Shown piece by piece: positions 8,488-27,409 of a DNA stretch of 64,000 bases. The notes below the pieces were generated by a model, which saw only the letters and a list, made by a program, of their open reading frames with translations, was not told the DNA's origin and did not search any database. A program made the position numbers and the translations under genes. The DNA lies in the NCBI GenBank assembly GCA_051891195.1, contig JBJFEZ010000061.1, positions 10,178 through 74,177 on the forward strand. Reading direction: 5' to 3'. Each line of letters begins with the position of its first letter. Position 1 is the first letter of the stretch. Source of the DNA: Clostridia bacterium (GTDB lineage: Bacteria > Bacillota > Clostridia > TANB77 > CAG-508).

Positions 8488-8522
8488 AATAGTTGTAAAA
8501 TAAAAAAGGAGGAAAACTGCTT

Positions 8523-12569: not shown

Positions 12570-12699
12570 AAAAATACACCTTCTCTAAAAAAGTTTATTA
12601 ACTTTAGTATTTCCTTAAATTTTTATAAATATACTTAAATAAAGTTAAAATATACTTGATATTTTGTTTTTTTTTTGGTATTATATTAAGGTAATATAT

Positions 12700-12740
12700 G
12701 CAGGTGTGGCGGAATTGGCAGACGCACAGGACTCAAAATC
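12700..12740 (+). pseudogene. 5' fragment (acceptor arm to anticodon loop) of the host tRNA-Leu(CAA) gene cut by island insertion
   Basis: gcaggtgtggcggaattggcagacgcacaggactcaaaatc. Joined to 23411-23458 it rebuilds a perfect type-II tRNA-Leu(CAA): acceptor gcaggtg/cacctgc, anticodon stem cagga/tcctg. Confidence 0.85.
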
Positions 12741-12825
12741 TAAATGGATTTTTTTCGTGTTGAAACTTATAAGTATTGAAAATAGTAATGTTTAGATATT
12801 TGCTAGAGTTGAAAAATGCTCAAAC

Positions 12826-12844
12826 ATCTAACAAATATCTAACA
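12826..12844 (+). repeat. Two direct ATCTAACA repeats (candidate integrase arm-type sites) upstream of the island-borne tRNA
   Basis: catctaacaaatatctaaca. The same octamer occurs three times at 23222-23250. Confidence 0.35.
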
Positions 12845-12877
12845 TAATTGTAAAACCGCCAAAATTTAATAAAATAT

Positions 12878-12963
12878 GTCGATGTGGCGGAATAGGCAGA
12901 CGCACAGGTCTCAAAAACCTGCGGATAACATCCATGTGGGTTCGATTCCCACCATCGACACCA
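12878..12963 (+). tRNA. tRNA-Leu(CAA), class II with long variable arm, intact; appears to be island-encoded
   Basis: Folded by hand: acceptor gtcgatg/catcgac, anticodon stem caggt/acctg, loop ctCAAaa, variable-arm hairpin, T-arm gtggg-ttcgatt-cccac, 3' ACCA. Confidence 0.85.
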
Positions 12964-12968
12964 TATAA

Positions 12969-14240
12969 CTAATTACTTTGAGAAGATGAAGATGTGCTTT
13001 CTTCATTTTCTTTTTTTGTATCTGTAAATTTTAATGCATTAACCAGAGCATCTGCTGAAAGCTTTTTAGAATTAACATCTAAATGAGCATATAAATTAGC
13101 TGTAGTAGAAAAATTAGAATGACCAAGCCATTCTTGTATAGCTTTCATAGGAATACCTTTAGCAAGTAATAAACTCGCACAGGAATGCCTTAAATCGTGA
13201 AAACGAATATGTTTCATACCGATTTTATTTAATAATATACTAAAATGTTCTGAAATATAGTCAGGGCGAATTAATCTGCCTTGAGGATTAACAAAAACAT
13301 AATCTAAATATTTTCTATTATAAGTTTTTCCAAAAGCCTTTTTAAATGCTTCTTGTTTTTCTTTAAGTTCTAAAAGTTTATCTGCAATATCATCTAATAA
13401 AGGCAATGACCTATAACTAGATTTATTTTTTGTTTTGTCTTTGCATTCAATTTTTCTATTATTACCTTCTGTGTTTGTTACCGTAACAGTATGCTTTATA
13501 GTAAATGTTAGGTTTTCAAAATCAAATGAGTCCCATTTTAAACCTAAAACTTCACTTCTTCTTAAACCATAAAAAGCAGTAACTAAAATAATAACTTCTA
13601 AAGGATCACCTTTAGATTTCTCAAATAAAGTATTTAATTCAGTTTGAGTATAATAGCTTCCTATATATTGTTCTACTTTAGGTTTTTGAACTTTATCAGC
13701 TGGATTACTAGGAATAATATCCATTTTAAAAGCGTATTCTAAACATTTTCTTATAATGGCGTGATGATGCACAACAGTGTTGGCAGAAAGATGTTTTTCA
13801 ACCATTAATTCATTATAAAAATCTTGAATATGAACATGGGTTAGGTCTACTAACTTTATAGGATTTTCAGTAAAATATTTCTTGATATGATTATTGGATA
13901 TTTGCCTATAAGATGTGAACGTAGAATTTTCTACAGTATGCCTAATAATTTCTAGCCAATAAAAAAGATACTCTATAAAAAGAATATCACTTGAATTATT
14001 ATTTGATTTTGAATTGTTTAGAGCTTTTAAATTTAGTTCTTTTTCTAAATTTGCTCTTATTTCTTCAGCTTTTGCCATAGCTTGTTTTTTATTTCCGCGT
14101 TCTTTTAAACCAGTAGAACGCCAAGGTTGTTGTCTTTTTCCGTTTTCATCATAGTATTCTAAAACTGCTTGATATATTCCATTTCGAACAACAAGACTAC
14201 TTAGAGATACTTTAATTTGTTGTAAATTTTCTGTTACCAT
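12969..14240 (-). CDS. Tyrosine-type site-specific integrase
   Basis: 423 aa, C-terminal catalytic region HDLRHSCASLLLAKG..LGHSNFSTTANLYAHL (R..HxxR..Y). Immediately next to the tRNA 3' end. Confidence 0.9.
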   Translation of the reverse strand: MVTENLQQIKVSLSSLVVRNGIYQAVLEYYDENGKRQQPWRSTGLKERGNKKQAMAKAEEIRANLEKELNLKALNNSKSNNNSSDILFIEYLFYWLEIIRHTVENSTFTSYRQISNNHIKKYFTENPIKLVDLTHVHIQDFYNELMVEKHLSANTVVHHHAIIRKCLEYAFKMDIIPSNPADKVQKPKVEQYIGSYYTQTELNTLFEKSKGDPLEVIILVTAFYGLRRSEVLGLKWDSFDFENLTFTIKHTVTVTNTEGNNRKIECKDKTKNKSSYRSLPLLDDIADKLLELKEKQEAFKKAFGKTYNRKYLDYVFVNPQGRLIRPDYISEHFSILLNKIGMKHIRFHDLRHSCASLLLAKGIPMKAIQEWLGHSNFSTTANLYAHLDVNSKKLSADALVNALKFTDTKKENEESTSSSSQSN

Positions 14241-14318
14241 TATAAACTCCTTTCTGATGTAACAGACTAAATTAATTTACTATTGATTTTGTTCTTTGTA
14301 GTAAATATAAAATTTAGC

Positions 14319-14531
14319 CTAAACAACACTTTGATTTAATAAATAAGAAATAATATTTTGTTTAGGAATTTTATATTGTCTACCAACTTTTATAGACTTA
14401 ATAGTATTTTGCTTTACTAACCTATAAGCAAGAGTAATTCCTATGCCTAGCATTTCTGCTAATTGATTTACATTTACTACATCTTTATATGCAGTAAACA
14501 TAGTAGAGTAATTTTGTTTTAAATCTTTCAT
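14319..14531 (-). CDS. Excisionase/Xis-like small HTH DNA-binding protein
   Basis: 70 aa, helix-turn-helix LAEMLGIGITLAYRLVKQNTIKSIKVGRQYKIP (MerR-like Xis family). Directly upstream of int. Confidence 0.65.
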   Translation of the reverse strand: MKDLKQNYSTMFTAYKDVVNVNQLAEMLGIGITLAYRLVKQNTIKSIKVGRQYKIPKQNIISYLLNQSVV

Positions 14532-14635
14532 ACGATGACCTCCTTTTCAAAAATCTCAATAGCTAAATAATTTTCGCTATATGTATTGCGTATTGGATTT
14601 TGAGAAAGGTAAATCTCTTACTTGGTCTAATTTCT

Positions 14636-15082
14636 TTAAAAAGCATTCATACTAATTCTTTTTGGTGCATCAAAGCCAGCTTTAATTCCCTTTAGCATGA
14701 CAAATTGATTTTTAATACTATCATAAGCGTAAATACTAGAATTAGCTTTCTTAAAGGCATAGTCAGAAAGAGGATGAGGGTTATAAGAAAGTTCTATTGA
14801 ATCTTGTCTTTGTTGTTCTAATAATTGCTCGTAAGCGATATCTTTTTCTTTTTTTCTAACATAATTCTTCTGATATTCGGCTTGAGCAATTTTGCGTTTT
14901 TCTGCATTACTAGATTTTCTAGAACTTTTTTCATTTTCATATCGTCCATCTTTTTTGATTATTTTAGAAATATATTGTTGAGAAGCATTAACTATTTCTG
15001 CAATTTCTATTTGTTTTAAATGCTTATTAAAATATAAATCTAATATTTGCTCTTTCTTATCCAAAAAATTTCCTCCTTTCAT
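14636..15082 (-). CDS. Putative transcriptional regulator with a sigma-70 region-4-like HTH
   Basis: Start taken at MKGGNFLDKK, which has RBS aaaggagga just before it; the 40 upstream codons of the ORF track lack any start signal. Segment KEQILDLYFNKHLKQIEIAEIVNASQQYISKIIKK. Confidence 0.5.
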   Translation of the reverse strand: MKGGNFLDKKEQILDLYFNKHLKQIEIAEIVNASQQYISKIIKKDGRYENEKSSRKSSNAEKRKIAQAEYQKNYVRKKEKDIAYEQLLEQQRQDSIELSYNPHPLSDYAFKKANSSIYAYDSIKNQFVMLKGIKAGFDAPKRISMNAF

Positions 15083-15157
15083 TTGGTTGTATTTTTGTTT
15101 GTTGATTTTTAGATACAATAATCCTAATGACTTTTTTGGTGATTTTCCAAACAAAAC

Positions 15158-15186
15158 TTGACTATTGTCTATAAAAAAGATATAAT
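15158..15186 (+). promoter_or_regulatory. Consensus promoter (TTGACT, 17 nt, TATAAT) driving the Zn-ribbon/kinase cassette
   Basis: ttgact attgtctataaaaaaga tataat. A copy of this promoter region survives in the decayed second island (23668-23700). Confidence 0.5.
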
Positions 15187-15322
15187 AGTAATATCTTAAC
15201 AAGGTTTAACAATTATAAAATGTAATAATTACTATTAATCACTAATTACATTATAGAGTAATAATTCATACTTGTCAAGTATTACATATAAAATTTTTGA
15301 AAAAATTTTTAGGAGAGTGAAA

Positions 15323-16225
15323 ATGAAGAAAAATAATGAAGGAAATTTCAGAACTTTTTGGTTTAGATATGATAGTTATGAAATGCGAGAAATAGAAGAA
15401 AAACACTATATTACACCAAAAGAAAATTCAAAAGTAGTTATGTATGATCCATTTGATTTAGCAGATGACATATTAGTAGATATTTTAATGATAGGAAGAT
15501 GTGTTGAAAAAAATGACATAGAAGAATCTAATAAAATGATTATGGAATTTGTGGAGAAATATGGATTATTAGGAGAATTAACATATTTACCATTAAATAC
15601 TGATATAGTGGCACAAAACAAAGTTTATTTACCTAGTGGGAATTTAGTTAGTGATAAAGAAACATTACCTACTGCTGAATATATAGAGTTATTTTTAAAA
15701 TGTAGAAAGAAACAAAAAATCACTATGAAGAAAAATGCAAGAGGAGAAATTTTAGAATTGTCAGCAGAAAATGAAATGAACCCTGTTGTAGCCATAGATA
15801 GACCAGCTGAATATGCAGTTGTTTTCTCAAAGGCTTACTCAGAGTGTTTAGTTTGGATAATGCATTATGCAAGAACATTATATCAAACTTTTGAAGCAAT
15901 AGAAAATTATAGTAAAGTTGAAGATGCTTATACAAAGCAATTATATGATAATCGCATAAAGAATTTTAATCCATCAAAAATAGCTTGTAAGATATTAATG
16001 GGTAAAAATAAAGAAGACAAACCTGTTATAGAATGGAATTTTAATTCTTTAAAATTAGCAATAGATACAATGTTTGCTTTAAATGAAACTACTGAAAGAA
16101 AAACAGTAAAAATGTGTAAACATTGTGGTAAGCCATTTTCTTCTGAAAACTTGAAAGCTGAATATTGTAGCCCACAATGTAGAAATCAAGCAAATGTTTA
16201 TAAAAGTAGAGCAAAAAATAAATAG
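15323..16225 (+). CDS. Hypothetical protein with C-terminal zinc ribbon (CKHCGKP..x14..CSPQC); first gene of the HipA-like cassette
   Basis: Start MKKNNEGNF with RBS aggagagtg. No recognisable HTH. Confidence 0.55.
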   Translation: MKKNNEGNFRTFWFRYDSYEMREIEEKHYITPKENSKVVMYDPFDLADDILVDILMIGRCVEKNDIEESNKMIMEFVEKYGLLGELTYLPLNTDIVAQNKVYLPSGNLVSDKETLPTAEYIELFLKCRKKQKITMKKNARGEILELSAENEMNPVVAIDRPAEYAVVFSKAYSECLVWIMHYARTLYQTFEAIENYSKVEDAYTKQLYDNRIKNFNPSKIACKILMGKNKEDKPVIEWNFNSLKLAIDTMFALNETTERKTVKMCKHCGKPFSSENLKAEYCSPQCRNQANVYKSRAKNK

Positions 16226-16239
16226 AGTGGAGGAACTAA

Positions 16240-17197
16240 ATGATTGAATTAAAAAACTTTGATAATTGGGTAGAAGATATTGAATTTGGAAAATTCGGTA
16301 GTGGTGCAAGTGAAAAAGTTTGGCTTATTAATCCAGAAACAAACGAAAAAGGGCTTTTCAAATTTCCAAAAGTAAAGGATAAGGAAAAAGGAATAATAAC
16401 AGGAGAATATTGGGCTGAAAAACTTGCAACAGAAATAGGAAAATTAGTTGATGTAGAATGTGCCAAAGTAGATATTGGTATATATAAACGGAAGAATTGG
16501 CTCAATGAGTTATAACTTGGTAGAATATAGTTCAGAAGATAACTATACAAACCTATTAGAAGGTATAGTTTTTATAGAAAATCAGTATCCATATTATGAC
16601 AAAGATAAATTAGAGGATACTTATTCTAATAGTAAATATTCTATACAAATGATACAAAATAGTTTAAATGGAATATTAGAGATGGATAAATTTTATAAAA
16701 TTGTTATATTTGATATTTTGATAGGAAATAGTGATAGACATCATAGTAATTGGGCAATTTTAGCCAAAGGAACAGTATATAAGACTCCAGAAGATATGCT
16801 TGATATATTTTTTAATTATAATATGTGTCCTTTATATGATAATGGTTCATCATTATGTGCCTACGAAGATAATAATAATCTTGAAATATTTTTTAAAGAT
16901 AAAATGAAGTTTGAAGCATTAGTAAATACAAAGTCAAAATCTGCTATTGGATGGGAAAATGAAAGACCTATTAGACACTTTGAATTATTGAAAAAAATAA
17001 AAGACAATGCATATGAATTAACAGTACAATATATAGAAAAGATTAAAACTAATATTAATGAAGAAAATATAGATAAAATTTTAAATGAGTTTGATAATAA
17101 TATAATAAGTATAGATATGAAGAAATTATTAAAAATGTATCTTTTAGAACGAAGAAAAAGAATATTAGAGATATATGATTTGAAAGATGAGGTGTAA
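16240..17197 (+). pseudogene. HipA-like Ser/Thr kinase core (HipT-like, no N-subdomain 1), interrupted by a +1 insertion (c at 16489); possibly an artefact
   Basis: ORFs 16240-16515 and 16475-17197 overlap. Removing the c in aaa c gga aga gives a continuous ~318-aa protein with HipA motifs: FGSGASEKVWL (like GAQEK), GEYWAEKLATEIG, IFDILIGNSDRHHSNWAIL (catalytic D.H..N), CPLYDNGSS. Confidence 0.7.
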
Positions 17198-17204
17198 AAG
17201 AAAA

Positions 17205-17555
17205 ATGGAAAAAGATTTAGTATATTTAGTTTGGACAGATGTTAAAACAGGAAATAAATATAAAGTAGCTGAATTATATAAAATGAATAATGCTTTTTAT
17301 TTTAAGTATATTCTAGAAAATGTAAAAGAGGCTCAAAAAAGTGGTTTTAAATTATTAATTGCATTTCCTCAAATTAATGCTTTATATGATAATCCAAAAT
17401 TATTTGCTACTTTTGCAGCAAGATTACCAGAGCCTACAAGACCAGAAATAAAAGAGATTTTAGAAACTTATGGAATGACAGAATATGATGCGTTTGAATT
17501 ATTAAAAAGAAGTGGTGCAAAACTACCTACAGATAATTATGAATTTGTAAAATAA
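17205..17555 (+). CDS. HipA N-terminal-subdomain-like small protein (HipS-like) downstream of the kinase
   Basis: 116 aa; LVYLVWTDVKTGNKYKVAELYKMNNAFYFKY and LFATFAARLPEP resemble the HipA N-domain (VGEL..F.Y, FNFF.NLLPD). Start is 8 nt after the kinase stop, with RBS gaggtg. Confidence 0.5.
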   Translation: MEKDLVYLVWTDVKTGNKYKVAELYKMNNAFYFKYILENVKEAQKSGFKLLIAFPQINALYDNPKLFATFAARLPEPTRPEIKEILETYGMTEYDAFELLKRSGAKLPTDNYEFVK

Positions 17556-17581
17556 TTTAATATTTAATATTATTTATAATG

Positions 17582-17610
17582 TTGATTAGAAAATATCAAT
17601 ATGCTATAAT
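17582..17610 (+). promoter_or_regulatory. Promoter (TTGATT, 17 nt, TATAAT) for the serpin gene
   Basis: Read directly. Confidence 0.45.
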
Positions 17611-17661
17611 AATTTCAGTATAAGAGCTATTAACAAAAGAGTAAAATAGATAAAGGAGTGT

Positions 17662-18957
17662 ATGAAAATGCAAGAAAATAAAGAATTAAAAATCAAATTA
17701 AAAACAGCAATTATTTTAATTGTAATATTATTAATAGCAGTAGTAGCAATATTTGCATTAATAATGAATAAGGGAGACGAAATTGGTTCTAAAGGTGGTA
17801 GTACAATAGTTGGTAATGAATCAGAAAAACAACAAGCTATGGATACAGATTTTTCAATGAGTTTTTTAAAATTAGAAAATGATAAACAAAATATGATATA
17901 TAGCCCACTATCAATAAAATATGCATTAAAAATGCTAAACGAAGGTGCAAATGGAAATACTAAGACTCAAATAGAAAATGTAATAGGAGAATTAAATTTA
18001 ACAAAGTATAATAATATTGATAAAGTATTATCTTTAGCCAATGGTGTATATATTAGAGATACTTATGCTAAATATGTAAAAGAAGATTATAAAAAAATAC
18101 TAACTGAAAAATATAATGCTGAAATAAATTATGATTCTTTTAATAATGCTAATAATATAAACAATTGGATTGAGAATAAAACTTTAGGAATAATAAAAAA
18201 TATGTTAAAAGATGATTTAGTAAGAGATCCGCTTACAGAAATGCTTCTTATAAATGCCTTGGCTATTGATATGGAATGGGAAGAATCTTTTGATAGCAGT
18301 AAGACTTATGGAGAAGAATTTAATTTAGATAACGGAAACAAGATGATAGCAACAATGATGCATAAAGAAACAAAAAGTGATAATATATCATATTATAAAA
18401 ACAAAGATGTTACAGCTTTAACAATGGATTTAAAAGAATATAATGATACACAACTAGAGTTTATTGCGATAATGCCTGAAGAAAATCTGTCAGATTATAT
18501 AGAAAGTTTTACTATAGATGATTTTGATACTATTATAAAAAAATCAAAATTAGCTTCTAAAACTAAACATGGCGTAGACATTTCAATACCAAGATTTTCA
18601 TTTGATTATGATTTAAAACTTAAGAACGACTTGATAAAATTAGGAATAACAGATGCTTTCAGTGATCGCGTAGCCGATTTTTCTAATATGTCAAATAGAG
18701 AACTTTATGTTAGCGATGCATTACATAAAGCAAATATAGATTTCACTGAAAAAGGTGTTAAAGCTGCAGCAGTTACTGTAATTGTTATGGCAGACAAATC
18801 AATGGTAGCAACTCCTACTAAACCTGAAGAAATAAAAATAGATAAACCTTTCTTGTATATGATTAGAGATAAAAATACAGGAGAACTATGGTTTGTAGGA
18901 ACTGTTTATGAACCAAATTCTTGGGAAGATGATAAGGCAGATTATCAATATAGATAA
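17662..18957 (+). CDS. Serpin-family serine protease inhibitor with N-terminal membrane anchor
   Basis: 431 aa. N-terminal TM helix; hinge and reactive-centre-loop region EKGVKAAAVTVIVM; C-terminal KPFLYMIRDKNTGELWFVGTVYEP (serpin signature F..D.PF.F.I). Confidence 0.8.
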   Translation: MKMQENKELKIKLKTAIILIVILLIAVVAIFALIMNKGDEIGSKGGSTIVGNESEKQQAMDTDFSMSFLKLENDKQNMIYSPLSIKYALKMLNEGANGNTKTQIENVIGELNLTKYNNIDKVLSLANGVYIRDTYAKYVKEDYKKILTEKYNAEINYDSFNNANNINNWIENKTLGIIKNMLKDDLVRDPLTEMLLINALAIDMEWEESFDSSKTYGEEFNLDNGNKMIATMMHKETKSDNISYYKNKDVTALTMDLKEYNDTQLEFIAIMPEENLSDYIESFTIDDFDTIIKKSKLASKTKHGVDISIPRFSFDYDLKLKNDLIKLGITDAFSDRVADFSNMSNRELYVSDALHKANIDFTEKGVKAAAVTVIVMADKSMVATPTKPEEIKIDKPFLYMIRDKNTGELWFVGTVYEPNSWEDDKADYQYR

Positions 18958-18970
18958 ATTATAAAGTATA

Positions 18971-18995
18971 AAGGAGCTGTGTTGCTCCTTTTTTT
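18971..18995. terminator. Bidirectional terminator between the serpin and relaxase genes
   Basis: aaggagc tgtgtt gctcctt followed by ttttt. Confidence 0.6.
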
Positions 18996-20283
18996 ATCTA
19001 TCTCTATATTTATTTTTAGATTTAGCTTTTTCTTGCTGTTCAGCTTTTTGTCTTTCTTCTTTTAACTTTTGATGAAGCTCATATATTTTAATTTTATCTA
19101 TTCTACTTTGAATATTATCACAATGTCTTATTTCTTCAGCAAGTGGTGTAATCTTTTTAGAAATTTCTACAATTTGATTTTCAATATTTTTCTTTTCATC
19201 TTCAGTTTTAGCTCTTTTATGCTTTTTCCATAAGTTTTCTCTTTCACTTTTTAGAGGATTAATTTTATCATAAGCAGATTTTTTAAAATCAAACAATCCT
19301 TGCTCCGTATTAATCTTATATTTAGCTAAAAATTTTGCTTGATTTGAATATTCATCCATTTGTTTTATTTCTTTTAACAATTCTGGAGTTATTCTTGTTA
19401 TATTCGATTTTGAGACTTTTTCTACATTTATACCTAATAATTTCTCATAATGAAATATCAAACCAAGAATAGAGCTTTTATTTTGAAGGTAACTTTCTTT
19501 TATATTGTTATATTTTTGAAAAGTTCTGTCAAGTAATGATTTAGGATTAGGAGTGTATGGAAAACGTGGCTGAGTTTCTAATATTCTTTTATAAATATTT
19601 TCTTTTGAATATTTATTTCCAAATTGTCTTTCAATTCTAGTGTTTCTTTTATAAGGCTCTCGCCTAATTGATAAAGTATCATTTTTATCAGTAACAATAT
19701 AATCTAAATCTTGAAGAATTTTTATAAACTCATTATAATCTTTTGCATTTTCTATTGCATAATCAATAGAATCTTTCATTAACTCTTTATATAAACTACT
19801 TGAAGCATATTTATTATATTTTTCTTCTTGTTTTAAAACACTTAATCCATAATCTTCACAAAGTCTATCAGATGTTTTTCGCATAGTAGCATAATCCTTT
19901 TTAGTATTGCAAAATCTTTTTCCATCTAGGAAAGAAACAGAGTTTAAAACAAAATGATTATGAATATTATCAGTATTTAAATGAGTTGAAACAACTACTT
20001 GATATTTATCTCCCCATAGCTCTTCAGCAAGTTTTATTCCAATTTCATGTGCTTGTTCTGGAGTAACCTCTTTTTCAGCAAAAGATTGAATTGCATGAAA
20101 ACATTCAATACCACCTGTTTTAAAAAATTGTTTTTTTACATTCTTCATTTCATAAAAAGCAGTATCGGGCATACAATTTATACCTGATACATATAGCTTG
20201 TGTTCGGTTTTTTCTCCATTAATTGCATATTCGATAAGACTGTCTAATCTGCTCTTGAATTTCCATATTTTTGTTGTAGCCAT
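18994..20283 (-). CDS. MOBV-family mobilization relaxase (MobM/Pre-like)
   Basis: 429 aa, HLNTDNIHNHFVLNSVSF (H.DE..H.H-type motif in MOBV relaxases), coiled-coil C-terminus. Confidence 0.75.
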   Translation of the reverse strand: MATTKIWKFKSRLDSLIEYAINGEKTEHKLYVSGINCMPDTAFYEMKNVKKQFFKTGGIECFHAIQSFAEKEVTPEQAHEIGIKLAEELWGDKYQVVVSTHLNTDNIHNHFVLNSVSFLDGKRFCNTKKDYATMRKTSDRLCEDYGLSVLKQEEKYNKYASSSLYKELMKDSIDYAIENAKDYNEFIKILQDLDYIVTDKNDTLSIRREPYKRNTRIERQFGNKYSKENIYKRILETQPRFPYTPNPKSLLDRTFQKYNNIKESYLQNKSSILGLIFHYEKLLGINVEKVSKSNITRITPELLKEIKQMDEYSNQAKFLAKYKINTEQGLFDFKKSAYDKINPLKSERENLWKKHKRAKTEDEKKNIENQIVEISKKITPLAEEIRHCDNIQSRIDKIKIYELHQKLKEERQKAEQQEKAKSKNKYRDR

Positions 20284-20620
20284 TTGAAGCTCCTTTCTTT
20301 TGAGGAGTAAGATAAACTTCTTGCATACTTAAAACAAAATCTTGTATTTGATTTAATAATGGTGTAAATTTATCTTCTCTCATATAACCTTGATATCTGT
20401 TATGAGTTCTTGCCATCTGATTTAAATTGTTTGCCATATTTCTTAATAAAGAAAGTATTTCATAAAATCTTTCATCAGGTTGTTCTCTTAATTGATAATC
20501 TGAAATGATTTTTCTGAAAAATTCTGATTTGTTCAATCCAGATTTTTTTACTTTTTCATCAAAGATTTTTTTCTCTTCTTCATTTAAGAAAACATTAATT
20601 TTTATATTACGATTTCTCAT
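20219..20620 (-). CDS. mobC: MobC-type relaxosome accessory protein
   Basis: 133 aa, ..KINVFLNEEEKKIFDEKVKKSGLNKSEFFRKIISD.. (MobC ribbon-helix-helix family). Upstream of the relaxase and overlapping it. Confidence 0.7.
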   Translation of the reverse strand: MRNRNIKINVFLNEEEKKIFDEKVKKSGLNKSEFFRKIISDYQLREQPDERFYEILSLLRNMANNLNQMARTHNRYQGYMREDKFTPLLNQIQDFVLSMQEVYLTPQKKGASNGYNKNMEIQEQIRQSYRICN

Positions 20621-20679
20621 AAAATTTCACCTCACTTTCTAAAAAATTCTTTATAATTTCTTTTTGGTTTAAAATAGGG

Positions 20680-20770
20680 TTTGGGACTTGTCCCATTCTT
20701 GATAGTATTTGTGGCGTGAGTACAAATACGTTGCTTGCATATTCAAGAAATCTAAAGAGTACTCACATTC
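20680..20770. promoter_or_regulatory. Candidate oriT upstream of mobC
   Basis: Inverted repeats gggac/gtccc (20683-20694) and gtgagtac/gtactcac (20716-20723 and 20759-20766) in the mobC 5' region. Confidence 0.3.
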
Positions 20771-20849
20771 AAAATCTCTTAATATTACTTACTGAAAGAA
20801 AAAATAAGGCACAAAATTTTAAAAATTGTGCCTTAAAGTTATTAAATTT

Positions 20850-21176
20850 CTATCTTAAAATTCCAATTTTTTTGAAGAAAAAGTAAGCCTCTTTACCACC
20901 TAAAAAGAATATTTCTTTTTCCTCAATTGATTGCATATCATAATAAATTTCTACTAATTTTGAGAGAGCTGTACACTCTTTATTTGATAAATTTCTGTTT
21001 TCAGTTTGACCTTCTAAAATCCAAACTAGATTTTCATTTTCATCTAAAATTTTATGATATTTTTCTTGTAATTTTATATATTTTTGATTTTTCTTTCTTA
21101 AAATTCTTTTAACATCATCTAAATATTCTTCAAACATATCTTCATATTCTTTATAAAATGATTTTATTTCTAACAT
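20850..21176 (-). CDS. Hypothetical protein; its N-terminus is conserved in the decayed second island
   Basis: 108 aa. MLEIKSFYKEY is also the N-terminus of ORF 24882-25118. Confidence 0.45.
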   Translation of the reverse strand: MLEIKSFYKEYEDMFEEYLDDVKRILRKKNQKYIKLQEKYHKILDENENLVWILEGQTENRNLSNKECTALSKLVEIYYDMQSIEEKEIFFLGGKEAYFFFKKIGILR

Positions 21177-21187
21177 AACTATTCCTC

Positions 21188-21541
21188 CTAAACATATATC
21201 AATTCTTTTAATATAATTTCTTCTGCAGAGTGTTTTATATTATTCATTAATCCAACCCATTTTAGTTGGTCTTTTGCTTTTAATTCTTCAGTAATATTTT
21301 CTTTTGCTGCATATTGTTTCATTAATAAGTCAAATCTTTCATTAGCAATTTTATCAATTTCCGTTAAATGTTTTTGTAATTTATTATCCATTAGCAAAAT
21401 GGTATATTCAGCTTTCTTATGTTCTTTAAGATATTTAAGTCTTAATTTTCCGTATTTTCCTATTTCAAAATTTTTCATATTACTTGGTGCTACTAAATTT
21501 GGTAAATAGTAATCGCCAACTTTTGTATATTCAATTTTCAT
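21188..21541 (-). CDS. TnpV-like conserved mobile-element protein
   Basis: 117 aa. MKIEYTKVGDYYLPNL N-terminus, typical of Firmicute transposon TnpV-like proteins. 3' part duplicated at 25120-25268. Confidence 0.45.
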   Translation of the reverse strand: MKIEYTKVGDYYLPNLVAPSNMKNFEIGKYGKLRLKYLKEHKKAEYTILLMDNKLQKHLTEIDKIANERFDLLMKQYAAKENITEELKAKDQLKWVGLMNNIKHSAEEIILKELIYV

Positions 21542-21549
21542 ATTAAATC

Positions 21550-21995
21550 AATTCCTTTCATTTTTATTTATAGAAACTTGAGGGAGAGAGCGAAGATAAT
21601 TAGGCGTAATAATCCCAATGTTTAAAAAAGGATTATTACACCTAGAGAATAAGAAACCGTCAGTCGGTCGCTTCGTTTCATAGGTAGTCTAGTAAGTAGA
21701 AGAACTACTACAATTGCTGATAATTTATCAATGTGCATACTTGTCCACACTTTTTACAATTGCAAATCCACATCCAAGCTTTGCCTCCCAAGAACTCTTT
21801 TATTATTGTGAGTCTATGGTTGTAAAATCTCACTCACGCACTTTGTATAAATAGACCGTTTATACTAATACGGGCTAATTTTATAGCATCGGCTTGCCAA
21901 ACCTAGTACTTTTATAGAGGTACTGCATTTCTCTGCATAATAAAAAGACTCCATTAGTAATTTAGACAATTACTAATAGAATCTTCAAATATAAT
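21550..21995. other. GC-richer (~38-40%) non-coding stretch with several hairpins; no ORF of 60 aa or more in any frame
   Basis: Compositional contrast with the flanks. Hairpins aggcgtaataatcc/ggattattacacct, gtgagt..actcac, agtac..gtact. Confidence 0.3.
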
Positions 21996-21999
21996 TAGT

Positions 22000-23139
22000 T
22001 TAATTTAAATTTTTAATTTCGGTATATCGATTGTAAAGTTTATTTATTAAAGTATCTAATTCTTCTGTCATTTCAATTTCTTTGTAGTAGTATTGTTTAA
22101 TAAGTTTTAATTCATGACTACTTACTTGTATATCAAGAAAAGTCAATCCTTGACAATAGCTTTCATTTGGATTACCAGTAAAATTTGGATCAATACTTCT
22201 TTCATATAAAACTGTTACTATATATTCTAATAATTCATTTTTGGTGAAGGCTCCTTGTTTGAATTTTTCTAATAATGGTGATGTCTTGAAAAAGATTTCT
22301 TTCATTAATTTTAAGTTTGTATGAATACCATTTCCTAAATCTAAATATGCATCATCAGGGATTATTCTATCATTTGAGACTGTTCCAGAATAATCAGCCT
22401 TCTTTATTTTTTCAGCATATCCCATTAAATTAACAGGAGGCATAACAATATTATTAATTGCTGTCATCATTAATAAATAAAATAAATATAAATTATTTTC
22501 TAATTTATCTTCATGTGTAACCAATATGGTATTATCAGTAGGAACAATTTCAATTTCTTTAAAACCATGTCTATTTATACCAAAAATTAATCCTTTATCC
22601 AAAATGCATACAATGCTTAACCTATTTTTTATATCTATACTATTATTAAACTCATCAATTTTTTTAACAATGTTATTTAAACTGGTGTCACTAGAATATG
22701 CAAATATCATGCATATTGGTGGAATAATAGAAGAAATTATTAAAGGAGATGAGAAAGGTTTTGTTTTTTCTAACTTTTTTACACTTTCTATATTTTTAAT
22801 ACTTTTCTCTAGTTCATCAACTGTTAGTGTTGATTTTACTTCAATAGTAGCATAGACACTCTCAATAGGAATTACTTGTACACTTTCAGTTTCCATTAAT
22901 TTAGGGCTATTAAAGTTATCATAAATTATAAAATCTTGTTGCCTACTTTGAGTTTCATTAGCATCAACAATAACTCCATTTCCTATAGCATATTTAGTTG
23001 GAAAAAGTTTAGATAAATATTCTTTTAATTTATCCTCTCTAATTGTTCCTTTTAATCCATTATGCTCAATTTTACTACTTAATTTTTGATAATCACTTTG
23101 TAAATTCTTTGCCATTTCTTGTAAATTATAAATAAACAT
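22000..23139 (-). CDS. Hypothetical protein with N-terminal PD-(D/E)xK nuclease-like motif (candidate defence or abortive-infection nuclease)
   Basis: 379 aa. ..GTIREDKLKEYLSKLFPTKYAIGNGVIVD..SRQQDFIIYD..IPIESVYATIEVKS fits a D..(D/E)xK core. No other family recognised. Confidence 0.4.
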   Translation of the reverse strand: MFIYNLQEMAKNLQSDYQKLSSKIEHNGLKGTIREDKLKEYLSKLFPTKYAIGNGVIVDANETQSRQQDFIIYDNFNSPKLMETESVQVIPIESVYATIEVKSTLTVDELEKSIKNIESVKKLEKTKPFSSPLIISSIIPPICMIFAYSSDTSLNNIVKKIDEFNNSIDIKNRLSIVCILDKGLIFGINRHGFKEIEIVPTDNTILVTHEDKLENNLYLFYLLMMTAINNIVMPPVNLMGYAEKIKKADYSGTVSNDRIIPDDAYLDLGNGIHTNLKLMKEIFFKTSPLLEKFKQGAFTKNELLEYIVTVLYERSIDPNFTGNPNESYCQGLTFLDIQVSSHELKLIKQYYYKEIEMTEELDTLINKLYNRYTEIKNLN

Positions 23140-23221
23140 ATTTATTCCTCCATACTATGAAATTTTCCTAATTATATCATATTTTCGTAAAAAATAAAAT
23201 CAATAATAAATAGTCTATTAC

Positions 23222-23250
23222 ATCTAACATATCTAACAAAACATCTAACA
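23222..23250 (+). repeat. Three direct ATCTAACA repeats (candidate arm-type recombinase-binding sites) near the island right end
   Basis: catctaacatatctaacaaaacatctaaca. Confidence 0.35.
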
Positions 23251-23403
23251 TTTTTTCAAAAAACTTGCAAAAAGTATAAAAACTATGTTATAGTTTAATA
23301 AGTAAGAAAAACGACGATGAGTGCTAGAAAATCCATAGTTTTGAGCTTTCTAAAAAGTAATATTTAATACTAAAAATAAATAAGTATAAAATAGCTTAAA
23401 AGA

Positions 23404-23458
23404 CTCAAAATCCTGCGAAGTAACATTCGTGTGGGTTCGACCCCCACCACCTGCACCA
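23404..23458 (+). repeat. 3' half of tRNA-Leu(CAA), anticodon loop to CCA; attR-side partner of the 12700-12740 fragment
   Basis: ctcaaaatcctgcgaagtaacattcgtgtgggttcgacccccaccacctgcacca. Preceded by non-tRNA sequence, followed by terminator 23465-23498. Confidence 0.85.
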
Positions 23459-23464
23459 TTAAAG

Positions 23465-23498
23465 TAAGAGAGCACACTCAATGAGTGTGCTCTCTTGT
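23465..23498 (+). terminator. Hairpin terminator following the tRNA 3' half
   Basis: aagagagcacactc aatg agtgtgctctctt. Confidence 0.5.
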
Positions 23499-23659
23499 AT
23501 TAAAGACCTAAGTCTTCTGCCTGTGCTTTTGTGACAATGTGTATTCCCTGTTTAATAAGGATATCTTTGAGTATTTCCATATGAAATTCTTAATACATTT
23601 AAAGAACATAGCTATAATATCATATTTATGTAAATCTGTCAAAAATTTTTAAGCGATTA

Positions 23660-23866
23660 CCAAACAAAACTTGACTATTGTCTATAAAAAGATATGATAG
23701 TTATGAAATGCGAGAAATAGAAGAAAAATGCAAGAGGAGAAATTTTAGAATTGTCAGCAGAAAATGAAATGAACCCTGTTGTATCCATTGGATAGAAGAT
23801 AAAGTTTCTGGTAAGTTCGGTAGTGGTGCAAAACTTCCAACTGATAATTATGAATTTGTAAAATAG
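23660..23866 (+). pseudogene. Patchwork remnant of the Zn-ribbon / HipA-like / HipS-like cassette
   Basis: Consecutive segments match 15147-15180 (promoter), 15369-15400, 15735-15795, 16275-16315 and 17520-17555 of the intact island. Confidence 0.7.
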
Positions 23867-24030
23867 TTATAATACTAATAATAAAAAGATAGAATAATTG
23901 ATAGCAGAAATAATAATTGAATACTGAAAAAAATTACAAAATAAAAATATTTGGTTTTAACTTGTCATAATTATAATATTATGCTATATTAAATTAGAAT
24001 AATAATTATTAATTAAAGGGGAAATAGAAA

Positions 24031-24750
24031 ATGAAAAAAGTTAAAATAGCAATAATTACTTTGATATGTTTAGTAATAATATTAATAGGAACTATTTTTA
24101 TTATTAAATTACAGTCTATAAGTGAAATTTCGGATTATATAGTATTTAAAACAGCTAATTATGAATCAATAGAAGATGTGGTTTTTTATAGCAAAGACTT
24201 AAATTTAGATGATGAATTGAAAGATAATCTTACTATAATAGCAAATCAATTAAAAGTAAAATATCCTGGTAAAAGTATCTTATATTTAAGAAATCTAGGA
24301 AGTGCTTCACTTTTTGACGCTAAGGAATTATATAGATGTATGCAAATCATAAATGGACAAAAATTAGACGATACAGATATGAATGTATTAATTAAAGAAG
24401 ATGGAAGTGTTGAAATCCAATTTTTAATTAGATGTGCTTGGAAAAGTGGAAGTGATATTGACAATGTCCAAATAACACAAGAACAAGCTGAAAAAATTGT
24501 AATAGATTATTTGTATAAAAATCCAGATGATTATAAAGTATTAAGAAGTGGTTTTAATTTTACATTTAATTCTGCTACTCACGAAATGAGTAAAGTTAAT
24601 ACTGAAACATGTACAGTTGAGTTGTACAAATATAATTCTAAAACAGCTTGGAAAATGCAATTTTCAACAGGTGATAGTTATATAATAATAGATGCTAATA
24701 CTGGTAAGATTTTAGATACATACTTTTTTTGTGGAATTTACGTAGATTAA
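24031..24750 (+). CDS. Hypothetical membrane-anchored protein (PepSY-like C-terminal motif), cargo of the decayed island
   Basis: 239 aa, N-terminal TM helix, ..YIIIDANTGKILD.. near the C-terminus. Confidence 0.45.
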   Translation: MKKVKIAIITLICLVIILIGTIFIIKLQSISEISDYIVFKTANYESIEDVVFYSKDLNLDDELKDNLTIIANQLKVKYPGKSILYLRNLGSASLFDAKELYRCMQIINGQKLDDTDMNVLIKEDGSVEIQFLIRCAWKSGSDIDNVQITQEQAEKIVIDYLYKNPDDYKVLRSGFNFTFNSATHEMSKVNTETCTVELYKYNSKTAWKMQFSTGDSYIIIDANTGKILDTYFFCGIYVD

Positions 24751-24881
24751 ATGTGATTAAAAAATTTTCAAAGATATACAATATCCATTAATAGTTATTG
24801 TATATCTTGTTTTTTTATCTCCAAACCTCTCTATTTTTAACCTTAACTTTGCTATTTCCTTCTTGACTCATTTCTTTAATA

Positions 24882-25118
24882 TTATTTTTCGTTCTTAAAA
24901 GTATTGTCTTCAATAAAATCACATAGTTTAATATTTTTATTTAATTCATCTATTTTAGTGGCTAATTTTTGAATTTTAGAGCAAATAAATTGACCTTCTT
25001 CATCAGTTTTAATTCTTTTGCGCTTTCTCCATAAGTTTTCTCTTAATCTTTTTAATTCAACTATTTTATTTATAAGTGAAGATTTATATTCTTTATAAAA
25101 TGATTTTATTTCTAACAT
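24882..25118 (-). pseudogene. Chimeric remnant: N-terminus of the 20850-21176 gene family fused to a relaxase C-terminal fragment
   Basis: MLEIKSFYKEY.. then ..RENLWRKRKRIKTDEEGQFICSKIQKLATKIDELNKNIKLCDF, which parallels relaxase residues ..RENLWKKHKRAKTEDEKKNIENQIVEISKKITPLAEEIRHCDN. Confidence 0.55.
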
Positions 25119-25119
25119 A

Positions 25120-25268
25120 ACAATTCCTCCTATACATATATCAATTCTTTTAATATAATTTCTTCAACAGAATGCTTTATATTATTCATTAATCCAACCC
25201 ATTTTAGTTGGTCTTTTACTTTTAATTCTTCAGTAATATTTTCTTTTTCTGCAAATTGCTTCATTAAT
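25120..25268 (-). pseudogene. Truncated copy of the tnpV-like gene 5' region with its RBS
   Basis: About 90% nucleotide identity to 21176-21325. Confidence 0.6.
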
Positions 25269-25431
25269 ACATCCAACATTTTTTCAAAAAACTTGCAAAA
25301 AGTAAAAAGACTATGTTATAATTAAGCAAGTAAGAAAAACGATGATGAGTGCTAGAAAATCCATAGTTTTGAGCTTCTTAAAAAGTAATATTTAATACTA
25401 AAAATAAATAAGTATAAAATAGCTTAAAAGA

Positions 25432-25485
25432 CTTAAAATCCTGCGAAGTAACATTCGTGTGGGTTCGCCCCCACCATCTGCACCA
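25432..25485 (+). repeat. Second, more degenerate copy of the tRNA-Leu 3' half (outermost att repeat)
   Basis: cttaaaatcctgcgaagtaacattcgtgtgggttcgcccccaccatctgcacca: one deletion in the T-loop and two substitutions relative to 23404-23458. Confidence 0.75.
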
Positions 25486-25665
25486 CAAATTAGTTTGATA
25501 AGGATAATTGATTTTTAAGATTTTGTTTCTTATCTATGTTATATACAAGCAATCAACAAATTATGAAAATTTAAAATATAGGCAAAAAATATAGAAAAGG
25601 CTTTAGAGCATCTAGAAAATAAATATCAAGAAAAAACTTTTAAATATATAGGAGGAAATTATTAA

Positions 25666-26859
25666 ATGTTTAAGTTTATTAAAAATGAGAATATAGAAAC
25701 AAAAATTACAGAGGAATATATTTCAATTTTAGAAAATGATTTGCAAATAAAGTTTCCTAAAATATTGAGAGATTATTATTTGAAATATAATGGAGCTGAA
25801 ATAGAAGAATGTAAATTAATAATTCAAATGGGTGCTTATAATATTAATTGCTATGTAACTGAAATTTTAACTTTAAAATATGGTAAATATAATTTTGAGC
25901 ATGAAGCTAAATATATTAGAGATATTGAAAATATACCAAATGAATTTATACCTTTTGCAATAGATGAGGGATCAGATAGATTTTGTTGGGATTATAGTAC
26001 AGGCAAAGTATATTATGTTAGAATGGACGAAGAAAATCCAATATTAATTTGTGATAGTGTAGAACAATTTTTTGATATATTAACTGATTGTGTAAAAAAT
26101 GAAAATGGTTGTACGTTAGATGGAAAAGAAGATTTTAATTATAGTTCTTCAACACCAATAGGAACAGAAAAGAACAATCTTAAAGAAGAATCTGAGGTAA
26201 AAAAAATATTAACATTTAACAGCAAAAATAAACCATTAATATTACTTTTTGTACTAACAATAGCCAGTCTAATACTTATACCATTTACTGATTCACTATC
26301 TTTGTTATTAACTGGTGCTTTTGCTATATATACATTGATATTATTAGGTATACATATTACAAATAGAATTAAATCAATAAATGTAGTAAATAAATATGGT
26401 TTTGATGAATTGAAAAAAGAATTGCTTTCAAATAATACTATAAAGGTAGAAGGAATAAATACATACCTTACAGAAAAATATATTATTTCAAATCACCAAA
26501 AAGTAGTAATAATAGAATATAAAGATATTTCTTGGATTTATCCTACAAGAATTAGAGGTAGAAATAGTATAACGGCTCATATTAGTGCATATCTTGCAAA
26601 TAGAATGACGGGAACACCTTTAAGAGCACATCTAAAAAATGGGAAATCTTTAATTTCTGCTATAACTAATAATAGAAAGCAAGTGCAAATTATATTTAAT
26701 AGAATACATCAGAAAAACAACCAAGTTTTAATTGGTTATAACAAAGATAATATGAAAAAATATGAAAAAGTATGTCCAAAATATAAAAATAAAAAAATTT
26801 GGGGAATTCTTTTAGTAATAGCACTTGTTATAATAGCTATATTAATACAAAAAATTTAA
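25666..26859 (+). CDS. SMI1/KNR4 (SUKH) immunity-like domain fused to a two-TM segment and a C-terminal domain of unknown function
   Basis: 397 aa. N-terminal ~150 aa (ILENDLQIKFPKILRDYYLKYNGAEI..FIPFAIDEGSDRFCWDYSTGKVYYV..FFDIL) fits the SUKH-1 pattern. Hydrophobic helices at 190-240 and at the C-terminus. Confidence 0.5.
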   Translation: MFKFIKNENIETKITEEYISILENDLQIKFPKILRDYYLKYNGAEIEECKLIIQMGAYNINCYVTEILTLKYGKYNFEHEAKYIRDIENIPNEFIPFAIDEGSDRFCWDYSTGKVYYVRMDEENPILICDSVEQFFDILTDCVKNENGCTLDGKEDFNYSSSTPIGTEKNNLKEESEVKKILTFNSKNKPLILLFVLTIASLILIPFTDSLSLLLTGAFAIYTLILLGIHITNRIKSINVVNKYGFDELKKELLSNNTIKVEGINTYLTEKYIISNHQKVVIIEYKDISWIYPTRIRGRNSITAHISAYLANRMTGTPLRAHLKNGKSLISAITNNRKQVQIIFNRIHQKNNQVLIGYNKDNMKKYEKVCPKYKNKKIWGILLVIALVIIAILIQKI

Positions 26860-26888
26860 TGAGATTTTTGAAAAATTTGAATATATAC

Positions 26889-26925
26889 AAAAAAAGATGT
26901 ACTAAGTGTAGTACATCTTTTTTAG
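26889..26925. terminator. Bidirectional terminator
   Basis: agatgtacta agtg tagtacatct followed by tttttt. Confidence 0.6.
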
Positions 26926-26930
26926 AGAAA

Positions 26931-27293
26931 TTAAAGTACTTTCAGTACTCTGTCATCCTCTTCCACACACAGGATGGTGTTGTCATCCGTGAGTACAGCT
27001 CTGCTGTAGTCTTTCGCCTTCATGAATTTGTAAATCAGAGACTTCCTACCACAACGTTTCTTCACATCTTTTCTTGAGAGAAGCTCTCCAAAATACAGAT
27101 ACGGGGAAAAGTTGCAGGGGTCGTCCTTTACAAGTTCTCCATCAACGATGGTTTCTTCTCTGTCAAAGAAGCGATATCCGCTTGCACCTTTAGGAAGTTT
27201 TACCAGGCTGTCTCTCCGCTCTTCAATTTCTTCCTCTTCAGGTCCTACGGGGATTTTGCTGGTGTAAAAGAATTCGACAAAGTGTTTTAACAA
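26931..27293 (-). CDS. Hypothetical 120-aa protein in a compositionally foreign (~45% GC) segment
   Basis: An uninterrupted ORF coincides exactly with a GC-rich block embedded in ~27% GC DNA. No family recognised. Confidence 0.45.
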   Translation of the reverse strand: MLKHFVEFFYTSKIPVGPEEEEIEERRDSLVKLPKGASGYRFFDREETIVDGELVKDDPCNFSPYLYFGELLSRKDVKKRCGRKSLIYKFMKAKDYSRAVLTDDNTILCVEEDDRVLKVL

Positions 27294-27409
27294 TTTTAAC
27301 TCCTCCTAATTTGCTATTTCTAGCTTTTTTATTAAATACTGATATTACAGTATATATTTATATTATACCATATTTATTGCAAATTTTCAAATTTCAGTTG
27401 TATCACTAT

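Follow-up and report, generated by a model that had tools for sequence, protein, structure and literature searches.

Integrative mobilizable elements (IMEs) that encode site-specific recombinases often lie in tandem beside other, usually decayed elements, and a three-step scheme, in which an element integrates, decays to a cis-mobilizable element (CIME) and is then joined by accretion of an incoming IME, has been described as common (PMC5704250). The CIME of the ICESt1/ICESt3 family in Streptococcus thermophilus, and the IME tandems at tRNA-Lys genes in streptococci, are cases in point (Pavlovic 2004 and Bellanger 2011, as reviewed in PMC5704250). Here we analyse a 64,000-nt, AT-rich stretch of DNA (the window) from uncultured gut Clostridia, taken from a contig of a metagenome-assembled genome (MAG), in which an intact island of approximately 10.7 kb (A), inserted in a tRNA-Leu gene, is directly followed by a remnant (B, positions 23459–25485). 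The locus is quite probably a tandem array, formed by accretion, of two related IMEs at the anticodon loop of tRNA-Leu(CAA), with B arriving first and A second. It is a clear instance of the known pattern of accretion and decay, with a host group and an IME family that are both new, and the family context (replacement of a whole tRNA, slots for defence-type genes, and the tRNA of a neighbouring species described below) is more novel than the remnant itself.

Like the CIME and ICESt1/ICESt3, A and B combine a functional element with a related remnant that lacks recombination and transfer genes and has kept an att arm and a cargo gene, in an array attributable to repeated use of one att site plus deletions. 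The differences concern the target and the ends. The target of A and B is the anticodon loop of tRNA-Leu(CAA), which is not rebuilt; the incoming A is found 5' of the remnant, in contrast to the reviewed scheme, where integration occurs at the attR that holds the 3' end of the target gene; and the outer att site of B is degraded (core mutated, two of three arm repeats lost), with cis-mobilization appearing doubtful.

A second point of comparison is the tRNA-dependent lysogeny of actinobacteriophages such as Fionnbharth (Guerrero-Bustamante and Hatfull 2024, PMC10865867). These phages, like the islands described here, use a tyrosine integrase, their attP and attB share approximately 10 bp within a tRNA gene, and the tRNA is not reconstructed. 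The island family differs from them in comprising relaxase-bearing mobilizable islands of gut Clostridia, not phages, and in targeting tRNA-Leu(CAA) rather than tRNA-Lys(TTT). Judged by its gene content, it resembles tRNA-dependent lysogeny in its workings but is not a member of that group: it is without phage genes and has a relaxase and NikA, and a scan of viral contigs with the right-end pattern of the islands gave no matches. To our knowledge, the strategy of supplying a whole substitute tRNA has so far been described for mycobacteriophages.

Other known elements share single features with the family. Haemophilus phage HP1 integrates in the anticodon loop of a tRNA-Leu gene, and NBU1, an IME, at the 3' end of a Bacteroides tRNA-Leu gene; in both, attP contains the 3' portion of the tRNA and the gene is restored. 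The islands have in common with them a tyrosine integrase acting at tRNA-Leu, but their junctions are non-functional tRNA halves and a whole tRNA is supplied instead. The mobilizable transposons Tn4451/Tn4453 of Clostridia, the source of the TnpV family, are similar to the islands in carrying TnpV, in being mobilizable in Clostridia and in having a relaxase without a mating pore. Tn4451 encodes a large serine recombinase, TnpX, and a Mob/Pre-type relaxase, TnpZ, whereas a tyrosine integrase is the only recombinase of the islands and their relaxase is of the MobA/VirD2 type with a NikA-like partner.

Homology and erosion of the remnant

After its integrase and excisionase-like genes, island A encodes in order a regulator, p317, HipA_C-like (frameshifted), Couple_hipA-like, serpin and relaxase proteins, followed by NikA-like, DUF6664, TnpV and DUF6602/NucC-like genes and the right end. 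B was compared with A using a repeat finder and sensitive blastn (23459–25700 against 12600–23458), which agreed on eight colinear, same-strand matches of 47–298 bits. As a control for chance, the best same-strand match to A was recorded for each of 100 dinucleotide-preserving shuffles of 23459–25485; these had a mean of 33 bits and a maximum of 45.7, a single shuffle reaching 45. The colinear homology between B and A is far above chance.

Five of these matches make up a patchwork of 227 bp (23657–23883, + strand), whose colinear pieces of 39–69 nt derive from the cassette of A that extends from its promoter to the Couple_hipA-like gene. The first piece (23657–23704) matches the promoter region (15144–15192; 92%), the second and third (23690–23728 and 23720–23788) match p317 (15365–15403, 100%, and 15727–15795, 98.6%), the fourth (23787–23831) the HipA_C-like gene (16265–16309; 82%), and the fifth (23822–23883) the end of the Couple_hipA-like gene (17511–17572; 82%). 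Further to the right, 24909–25069 matches the relaxase C-terminus (19108–19268; 63%, E = 3e-14), 25047–25281 the N-terminus of DUF6664 and the C-terminus of TnpV (21105–21339; 86%), and 25266–25485 the right end with the adjoining tRNA 3' half (23238–23458; 93.7% over 221 nt with one gap, E = 2.5e-83). The initial annotation, made from the sequence without database searches, had described both the recurring right end with a more degenerate second tRNA half and some 200 bp stitched together from five cassette pieces; both descriptions hold, with coordinates correct to within a few bases, and the identity of the right end and the lengths of the pieces lie above the floors of 70% and 15 nt that had been set for these alignments. 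Translation places the patchwork pieces in differing reading frames, with stop codons, and the patchwork is hence debris and not a gene.

The junctions between pieces of the patchwork carry short repeats, namely AGATAT (6 nt, within the -10 box of the cassette promoter), GAAGAAAAA (9 nt), AT (2 nt) and AGTGGTGCAA (10 nt). Microhomology is clear (9–10 nt) at two junctions only, and the relaxase/DUF6664 and TnpV/right-end junctions show imperfect similarity only. Short direct repeats at the breakpoints point to repeated illegitimate deletion, either through slippage or mediated by microhomology. Relative to A, about 187, 323, 469 and 1201 bp have been lost from the cassette; a loss of approximately 1.8 kb has removed the NikA-like gene together with the larger part of the relaxase gene and the remainder of DUF6664, and another, of approximately 1.9 kb at TnpV/DUF6602, fused TnpV to the right end. 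The integrase, excisionase and regulator module is wholly gone, save for a possible regulator stub. The frame-scattered colinear pieces, the junction microhomology and the undecayed relatives described below support the derivation of B from a complete element by deletion, and the remnant documents deletion at short repeats as the mechanism of erosion in this reduced-genome lineage.

One gene has survived intact. The PepSY-like cargo gene (24031–24750, + strand) encodes 239 aa with an N-terminal hydrophobic membrane anchor and a PepSY-like C-terminus, although the Pfam match to PepSY is sub-threshold (23.5 bits, E = 6.9e-5, against a cut-off of 24 bits). It is flanked by the ends of the hipAN-like and relaxase genes, a position that corresponds exactly to that of the serpin in A, as had been recognized from the outset. 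The protein is 100% identical to an NCBI MAG protein with the locus tag ACI4UU_05720. The cassette promoter of A, TTGACT-17-TATAAT, persists in B as TTGACT-16-TATGAT approximately 330 bp upstream of the PepSY-like gene; this is a consensus match only, and promoter and terminator scans performed at chance level in such AT-rich DNA. One may speculate that the gene is still expressed.

Two open reading frames (ORFs) on the - strand are products of the deletions. A chimeric 78-aa ORF (24882–25118) opens on the same 11 residues, MLEIKSFYKEY, as the DUF6664 protein encoded at 20850–21176 and continues as a diverged C-terminal fragment of the relaxase; a truncated TnpV ORF of 49 aa (25130–25279) retains the C-terminal 47 residues (positions 65–111 of 111 in the Pfam TnpV profile, E = 1.3e-14). 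Both had been called correctly in the initial annotation. Beyond them, the right end (P arm) of B (25266–25429, + strand) is 84–90% identical to the right ends of eleven metagenome loci, compared with 93.7% for that of A, and one degenerate arm repeat, ACATCCAACA, is left of three. The decayed distal tRNA-Leu 3' half that follows (25430–25485, + strand) begins with a mutated core, GACTTAAAATC (25430–25440), and constitutes attR of B; besides that core mutation (C>T), the T arm lacks 1 nt and the acceptor strand carries a C>T substitution. The right ends of A and B differ at 13 positions, and the middle and distal 3' halves at 3.

At its left border, directly after the middle tRNA 3' half, B opens with a 31-nt hairpin, AAGAGAGCACACTC...GAGTGTGCTCTCTT (GAGAGCACACTC hairpin; 23466–23496, self-inverted match of 96.8%), which resembles a terminator common to the tRNA end and a convergent gene. 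Next to it, a truncated 26-codon ORF, MEILKDILIKQGIHIVTKAQAEDLGL (23500–23580, - strand), probably represents what is left of the N-terminus of a regulator gene belonging to B, being placed with respect to the divergent promoter region as the regulator gene is in A, and, with regard to a possible regulator-integrase fusion, no similarity was found between the stub and integrase C-termini. No homologue of the 198 bp that contain the hairpin and this ORF (23459–23656) was found in the window, in A or in the fetched loci, at either the DNA or the peptide level. There is no integrase or excisionase ORF in 23459–25485, NikA is absent and the relaxase is reduced to the fragment in the 78-aa ORF; an Rfam scan of B returned no RNA family. 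B is nonetheless bounded by att sites of the same type as those of A, with right end, core and 3' half on one side and, on the other, the junction that it shares with A (23402–23458). From this inventory, B is a non-autonomous, CIME-like remnant that is probably immobile even in cis. The annotation that results is clean, with one genuine cargo gene, two ORFs that are pseudogenes, and debris without coding function.

Lineage of the remnant and variation at the cargo slots

Along its length, B is between 63% and 100% identical to A. The fourth and fifth pieces of the patchwork, 82% identical to A, are 100% and 97.7% identical to islands from other metagenomes with integrases that are 84–85% identical (L102, L107 and L111; L-numbers denote the fetched contigs from metagenomes and relatives). 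Similarly, the TnpV/DUF6664 segment of B is 95.7% identical to L093 compared with 92% to A. The high identity of the first three pieces to A is explained by p317 being the most conserved module of the family, with 95–96% amino acid identity between lineages whose integrases are 15% different. Because the fourth and fifth pieces and the TnpV/DUF6664 segment are closer to other islands, B is not a duplicate of A; these comparisons place it in a different lineage, though gene order and orientation are shared.

A tandem duplication of the right part of A, followed by divergence, exchange of the cargo and deletions, would agree with that shared order and orientation and with pieces one to three being 92–100% identical to A, yet it is at odds with an identity that varies so widely along the remnant and with pieces that match another lineage almost perfectly. 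Moreover, undecayed islands from other samples, and not A, provide the match for the cargo gene with its flanks, and the sequences after the two 3' halves are unrelated, an outcome not expected of a tandem duplication. We regard a duplication as scarcely credible. The lineage evidence from pieces four and five was the ground on which it was rejected.

Homologues of the PepSY-like gene number 25. Four Logan contigs from other samples (L112–L115) carry the gene at 87% amino acid identity, with approximately 89% nucleotide identity across 23822–24762, and have an intact hipAN-like gene end upstream of it and a relaxase gene downstream; the relaxase of L112 is 91% identical to that of A over residues 120–429. 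Read by gene order and identity, these contigs prove to be undecayed B-type islands, and the PepSY-like gene proves to be genuine slot cargo. Two homologues lie outside family islands, P0006 in a chromosomal-looking context and P0009 in another mobile element.

Across the family a constant backbone is combined with two slots of changing cargo. Slot 1, between p317 and the HipA_C-like gene, holds nothing, AAA+DUF6414, a CD-NTase with Cap15 of a cyclic oligonucleotide-based antiphage signalling system (CBASS), or a 468-aa protein. Slot 2, between the Couple_hipA-like and relaxase genes, holds the serpin, the PepSY-like gene, an MmeI-type restriction-modification gene, AAA_15/21, a P-loop protein or unknown genes. 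The conclusion that the cargo slot is variable, drawn when the PepSY-like gene was first seen in the place of the serpin, is therefore well supported across family members. Taken together with its relatives, the remnant represents a family that swaps cargo (serpin, PepSY-like, MmeI restriction-modification, CBASS and the candidate defence system PDC-M03) at fixed positions; as a side reading of the gene content, the presence of PDC-M03, NucC-like, CBASS and MmeI-type genes suggests that the family behaves as a mobile defence island.

Attachment sites and order of arrival

The left flank of the locus is formed by gpr (germination protease; 11631–12569, - strand). An orphan 5' half of the host tRNA-Leu(CAA) follows (12700–12740, + strand; acceptor stem GCAGGTG), ending in the 11-bp crossover core GACTCAAAATC (12730–12740), and constitutes attL of A. 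The P' arm of A, of 132 bp (12746–12877, + strand), contains the arm repeats ACATCTAACA / ATATCTAACA (12824–12844), putative arm-type integrase sites, and is kept at 85–98% identity directly after the core in L028, L085 and L102–L110; exact copies of ACATCTAACA occur in the window only at island ends. A complete, island-borne tRNA-Leu(CAA) (12878–12963, + strand; acceptor stem GTCGATG; called by ARAGORN, and by Rfam with 59 bits) replaces the split host tRNA. At the opposite end of A, the right end (23238–23401) abuts the middle tRNA-Leu 3' half (23402–23458, + strand), which starts with the core GACTCAAAATC (23402–23412) and has an acceptor strand, CACCTGC, that pairs with the 5' half at 12700. 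Middle 3' half and right end together form attR of A and the left boundary of B. The core is thus present at both junctions of A, and the arms are conserved in more than 20 loci. On the right, the locus is flanked by a SUKH/SMI1-KNR4 gene (25666–26859).

Loci of the island family were gathered by scanning metagenome contigs with a 23-nt right-end pattern (11 loci) and by look-ups of two integrase homologues (10 more); tRNAs were called with ARAGORN and Rfam, protein domains with Pfam and defence systems with PADLOC. The left junction in L085 and L102–L110 consists of the 5' half of the host tRNA-Leu, the core GACTCAAAATC, a P' arm of approximately 130 bp with ACATCTAACAAATATCTAACA, a complete tRNA-Leu(CAA) and the integrase gene; L028 shows the 5' half, the core and the start of the arm before the contig ends, and L111 is cut within the island tRNA. 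The right junction comprises the conserved right end, the core and the 3' half of the host tRNA in all 11 loci of the pattern scan. No whole tRNA was called by ARAGORN or Rfam at 12700–12745, 23402–23458 or 25430–25485, and likewise none at the split sites of L085 and L102–L110, while a complete tRNA-Leu(CAA) is present in every family member examined that has preserved its left end and P' arm. As its junctions are read here, the family splits tRNA-Leu(CAA) in the anticodon loop, without rebuilding it, and supplies a whole substitute. The initial annotation had listed the tRNA 3' half together with the island right end; the half lies outside the island, since the family splits the host tRNA at the core.

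The empty site can be seen in six related species (L007, L013–L015, L019 and L048), which have one intact tRNA-Leu(CAA) after gpr. It lies approximately 105 bp after gpr in L007, L014, L015 and L048, and 1.1–2.7 kb away in L019 and L013, and is followed by a terminator hairpin and a d776 homologue in all but L007, where the contig ends at the tRNA. The 5' part of this intact tRNA is the same as 12700–12740 (41/41) and the 3' part the same as the middle half (57/57), whereas the distal half is 94.7% identical. With a single gene in all six species, the notion of two adjacent chromosomal tRNA-Leu genes at the site is not supported, though the species of the window might differ from them. The nearest relatives of the gpr gene itself are in MAGs of the CAG-508, CAG-273 and CAG-567 types.

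Two 3' halves with a single 5' half call for a particular history, and it is from these junctions that we infer the order of arrival and the origin of the middle 3' half. Because the attP of the family contains no tRNA half, entry of A into an attL or attR of a resident island would leave a P'-arm junction in the middle of the array, not a tRNA half; the tRNA half that is observed there implies that, on its arrival, A met an intact tRNA of the GCAGGTG type at the left border of B. A resident island can evidently offer such a target, as L090 has a whole host-type tRNA at the integrase end, and the layout of the middle junction (3' half, hairpin, gene end) is that of L084. In the history that we favour, B, a family member with PepSY-like cargo, would have integrated such that its left side displayed a wild-type-like tRNA (or 3' half) beside the hairpin, and the chromosomal 3' half at 25430–25485, useless since the arrival of B, would have started to decay. 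A would then have entered the intact tRNA at the left border of B, which left a single orphan 5' half (12700) on one side and an unaltered middle 3' half (23402–23458) on the other. Through at least seven deletions of the illegitimate or slippage type, B would have lost its integrase, excisionase, most of the regulator, the p317/HipA-like cassette, most of the relaxase, the NikA-like gene, most of DUF6664 and half of TnpV. Apart from some 200 bp of debris, B would be left with the promoter region of the cassette, its right att arm and the intact cargo gene. The middle half has no changes compared with three in the distal half, which fits B arriving before A. Successive integrations at one att site followed by deletional decay, as proposed at the outset, are supported by the lineage of B, the junctions and the undecayed relatives, and the remnant can be taken as a dated record of at least two family members visiting the site.

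The same components could have come together differently. A might have preceded B, or A and B might have been acquired in one step as a composite, which in an earlier host would have excised by way of the outermost att sites before being transferred and integrated whole. The transfer of accreted elements as composites has been documented, including that of CIME-ICE (integrative and conjugative element) tandems (PMC5704250), the middle 3' half could have travelled inside such a composite, and the left border of B is unlike that of A, so that the history of B is less constrained. However, if A had been first, insertion of B into the attR of resident A would again leave a P'-arm junction in the middle. 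With a composite, the distal half should be the newest and the middle half the oldest, which is contrary to the distribution of changes between them, and the distal att site, with its mutated core and single arm repeat, makes a poor excision partner at present. We consider histories of this kind unlikely.

The contig could also be an assembly artefact, in which A and B occupy the same tRNA in two co-occurring strains and were joined through their shared 3' half and right-end repeat. The source is a MAG, a 57-nt tRNA half and a 221-nt right end at 94% identity are repeats prone to produce chimeras, and independent contigs from a k=31 assembly of the same sequencing run break exactly at the sequence that A and B share. 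One contig of that assembly (L001), on the other hand, is unbroken and unbranched from gpr through the 5' half into the P' arm of A, with no competing path through an intact tRNA at appreciable coverage; it argues against a co-existing strain with an intact tRNA, without proving the linkage of A and B. The 13 differences between the right ends and the 3 between the 3' halves are such that reads can separate the copies, and even in a chimera B would remain a decayed island at the same att site, the tandem linkage alone being lost. An artefact thus seems very unlikely.

Several observations nevertheless weigh against the favoured account as a whole. The left border of B (23459–23656) has no homologue in any of the loci searched, and its role as the source of the middle half draws on analogy with L084 and L090. 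The tRNA carried by the family normally differs from its target in the anticodon stem, and a B-borne tRNA identical to that of the host would be atypical. The contig is metagenome-assembled, and A is only presumably linked to B across the 57-nt tRNA half. Exact-protein look-ups of gpr, SUKH and the PepSY-like protein recovered contigs from one sample only (SRR30616833), with no genome of the same species in a single-copy, B-only or empty state; of the states that the initial annotation had suggested looking for in relatives, tandem arrays were found (L084 and L087) and the same-species single copy was not. Finally, the difference of zero against three changes between the 3' halves is a small number.

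Island A and tRNA replacement in the family

The body of A (12969–23401; 10.4 kb) was delimited with Pfam, PADLOC and the backbone that it shares with L091, L093 and L102–L111. Its features include a tyrosine integrase (12969–14240, - strand; Phage_integrase, E = 1.7e-24), an HTH_17 excisionase-like gene (14319–14531, - strand; E = 2e-10), the serpin that is its cargo (17662–18957; Pfam E = 9e-73), a MobA/VirD2 relaxase (18994–20283, - strand; PF03432, E = 2.8e-40) and a NikA-like gene (Pfam E = 1.7e-17). No phage structural or lysis genes were detected in A by Pfam, and none of the other ORFs of the 10.7-kb island matched conjugation families beyond the relaxase and the NikA-like gene. By gene content, with a recombinase, a directionality factor, att sites and a relaxase of its own but without mating-pore genes, A and its family are IMEs, and the distribution of related loci makes this a widespread IME family of gut Clostridia. 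A, its own att sites intact, should still be able to excise alone, probably between 12730–12740 and 23402–23412, which would restore a wild-type tRNA followed by the remnant.

Earlier described as the intact copy, A deserves the term overall but not in its HipA_C-like gene. A +1 frameshift (16240–17197, with an extra C near 16489) splits this gene into ORFs of 91 and 240 aa, compared with a single gene of 309–319 aa in relatives (L110 and L102), and either decay has begun in A too or the frameshift is a sequencing error. The pair of HipA_C-like and Couple_hipA-like genes (16240–17555) corresponds to PDC-M03A/B, a candidate defence system in PADLOC (E = 4e-69 and 2e-42), and the DUF6602 protein (22000–23139) matches PADLOC models of NucC/PD-DExK nucleases (E = 8e-41).

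Acceptor stems of the host tRNAs are of four types (GCAGGTG, GCCGATG, GCCCGAA and GCTGATG), and the occurrence of near-identical backbones in hosts with four differing tRNA-Leu sequences is an indirect sign of mobility. We tentatively put forward, as a possibility that falls somewhat short of being probable, that this abundant family of gut-Clostridia IMEs practises 'tRNA-dependent integration', a lifestyle undescribed for non-phage islands. If so, the island would be freed from having to match the acceptor stem of its host, and changes in the stem could make the replacement tRNA immune to self-targeting. A whole tRNA at the border of a resident island would become the next landing pad, such that arrays would grow on the 5' side, and the island-borne tRNA might become the only copy of its host, for which L002 may be compared.

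The anticodon-stem pairs that flank the loop read GT-CTCAAAA-AC or CA-CTCAAAA-TG in island tRNAs and GA-CTCAAAA-TC in host tRNAs (window 12905–12921 against 12725–12745; L102). Paired, compensatory changes of this kind would keep the island tRNA functional while spoiling it as a target for integration. In L002, from the nearest species (gpr 94% identical at the amino acid level), the tRNA at the native site (8481–8566, reverse-complemented) is identical to 12878–12963 at 86 of 86 positions and stands behind the native promoter; it is not of the GCAGGTG type, unlike the split gene of the window and the tRNA of the six more distant relatives. Either an island tRNA became the chromosomal copy or the island captured its tRNA from such a host. 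The L002 DNA downstream of the tRNA is not conserved with the distal flank in the window and gives no help as to which 3' half is native.

Further tandem arrays occupy this tRNA in L084 and L087. In L084 (1006–3092), the right end of a family member, the core and a 3' half are followed by a GC-rich hairpin and then by the convergent integrase (47% identity) and the excisionase of a second island, while in L087 (20–8048) an unrelated element of approximately 6 kb, with a 49%-identical TnpV, lies between an intact tRNA and a mini-island. Mini-islands of 2.3–2.5 kb, which consist of a broken integrase gene and a right end between att junctions, occur in several metagenomes (L085, 8456–10931; L089; L090, 185–2563), and in L090 the complete host-type tRNA abuts the integrase end of the family member without a P' arm.

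The right end (170 bp) is conserved at 87–95% across the family (L084–L094), above most family proteins. Within it, a promoter-like element (TTGCAA, 18 nt, TATAGT/TATAAT, preceded by a TG) faces outward and, in an excised circle, would be directed across attP toward the island tRNA. In L085, L087, L089 and L090, TGTTAGATACTGTTAGATAG, the inverted version of the island ACATCTAACA arm repeats, is present in the host flank 30–60 nt after the right-hand 3' half, outside the apparent island boundary. The distance from the tRNA site to the 776-aa gene varies between relatives, from approximately 40 bp in L014 and L015 to 1.3 kb with two small genes in L002 (8567–9910, reverse-complemented); in the window, 25486–27400 holds the SUKH/SMI1-KNR4 plus DUF6709 gene and a 120-aa gene, the latter of which is inverted in L002.

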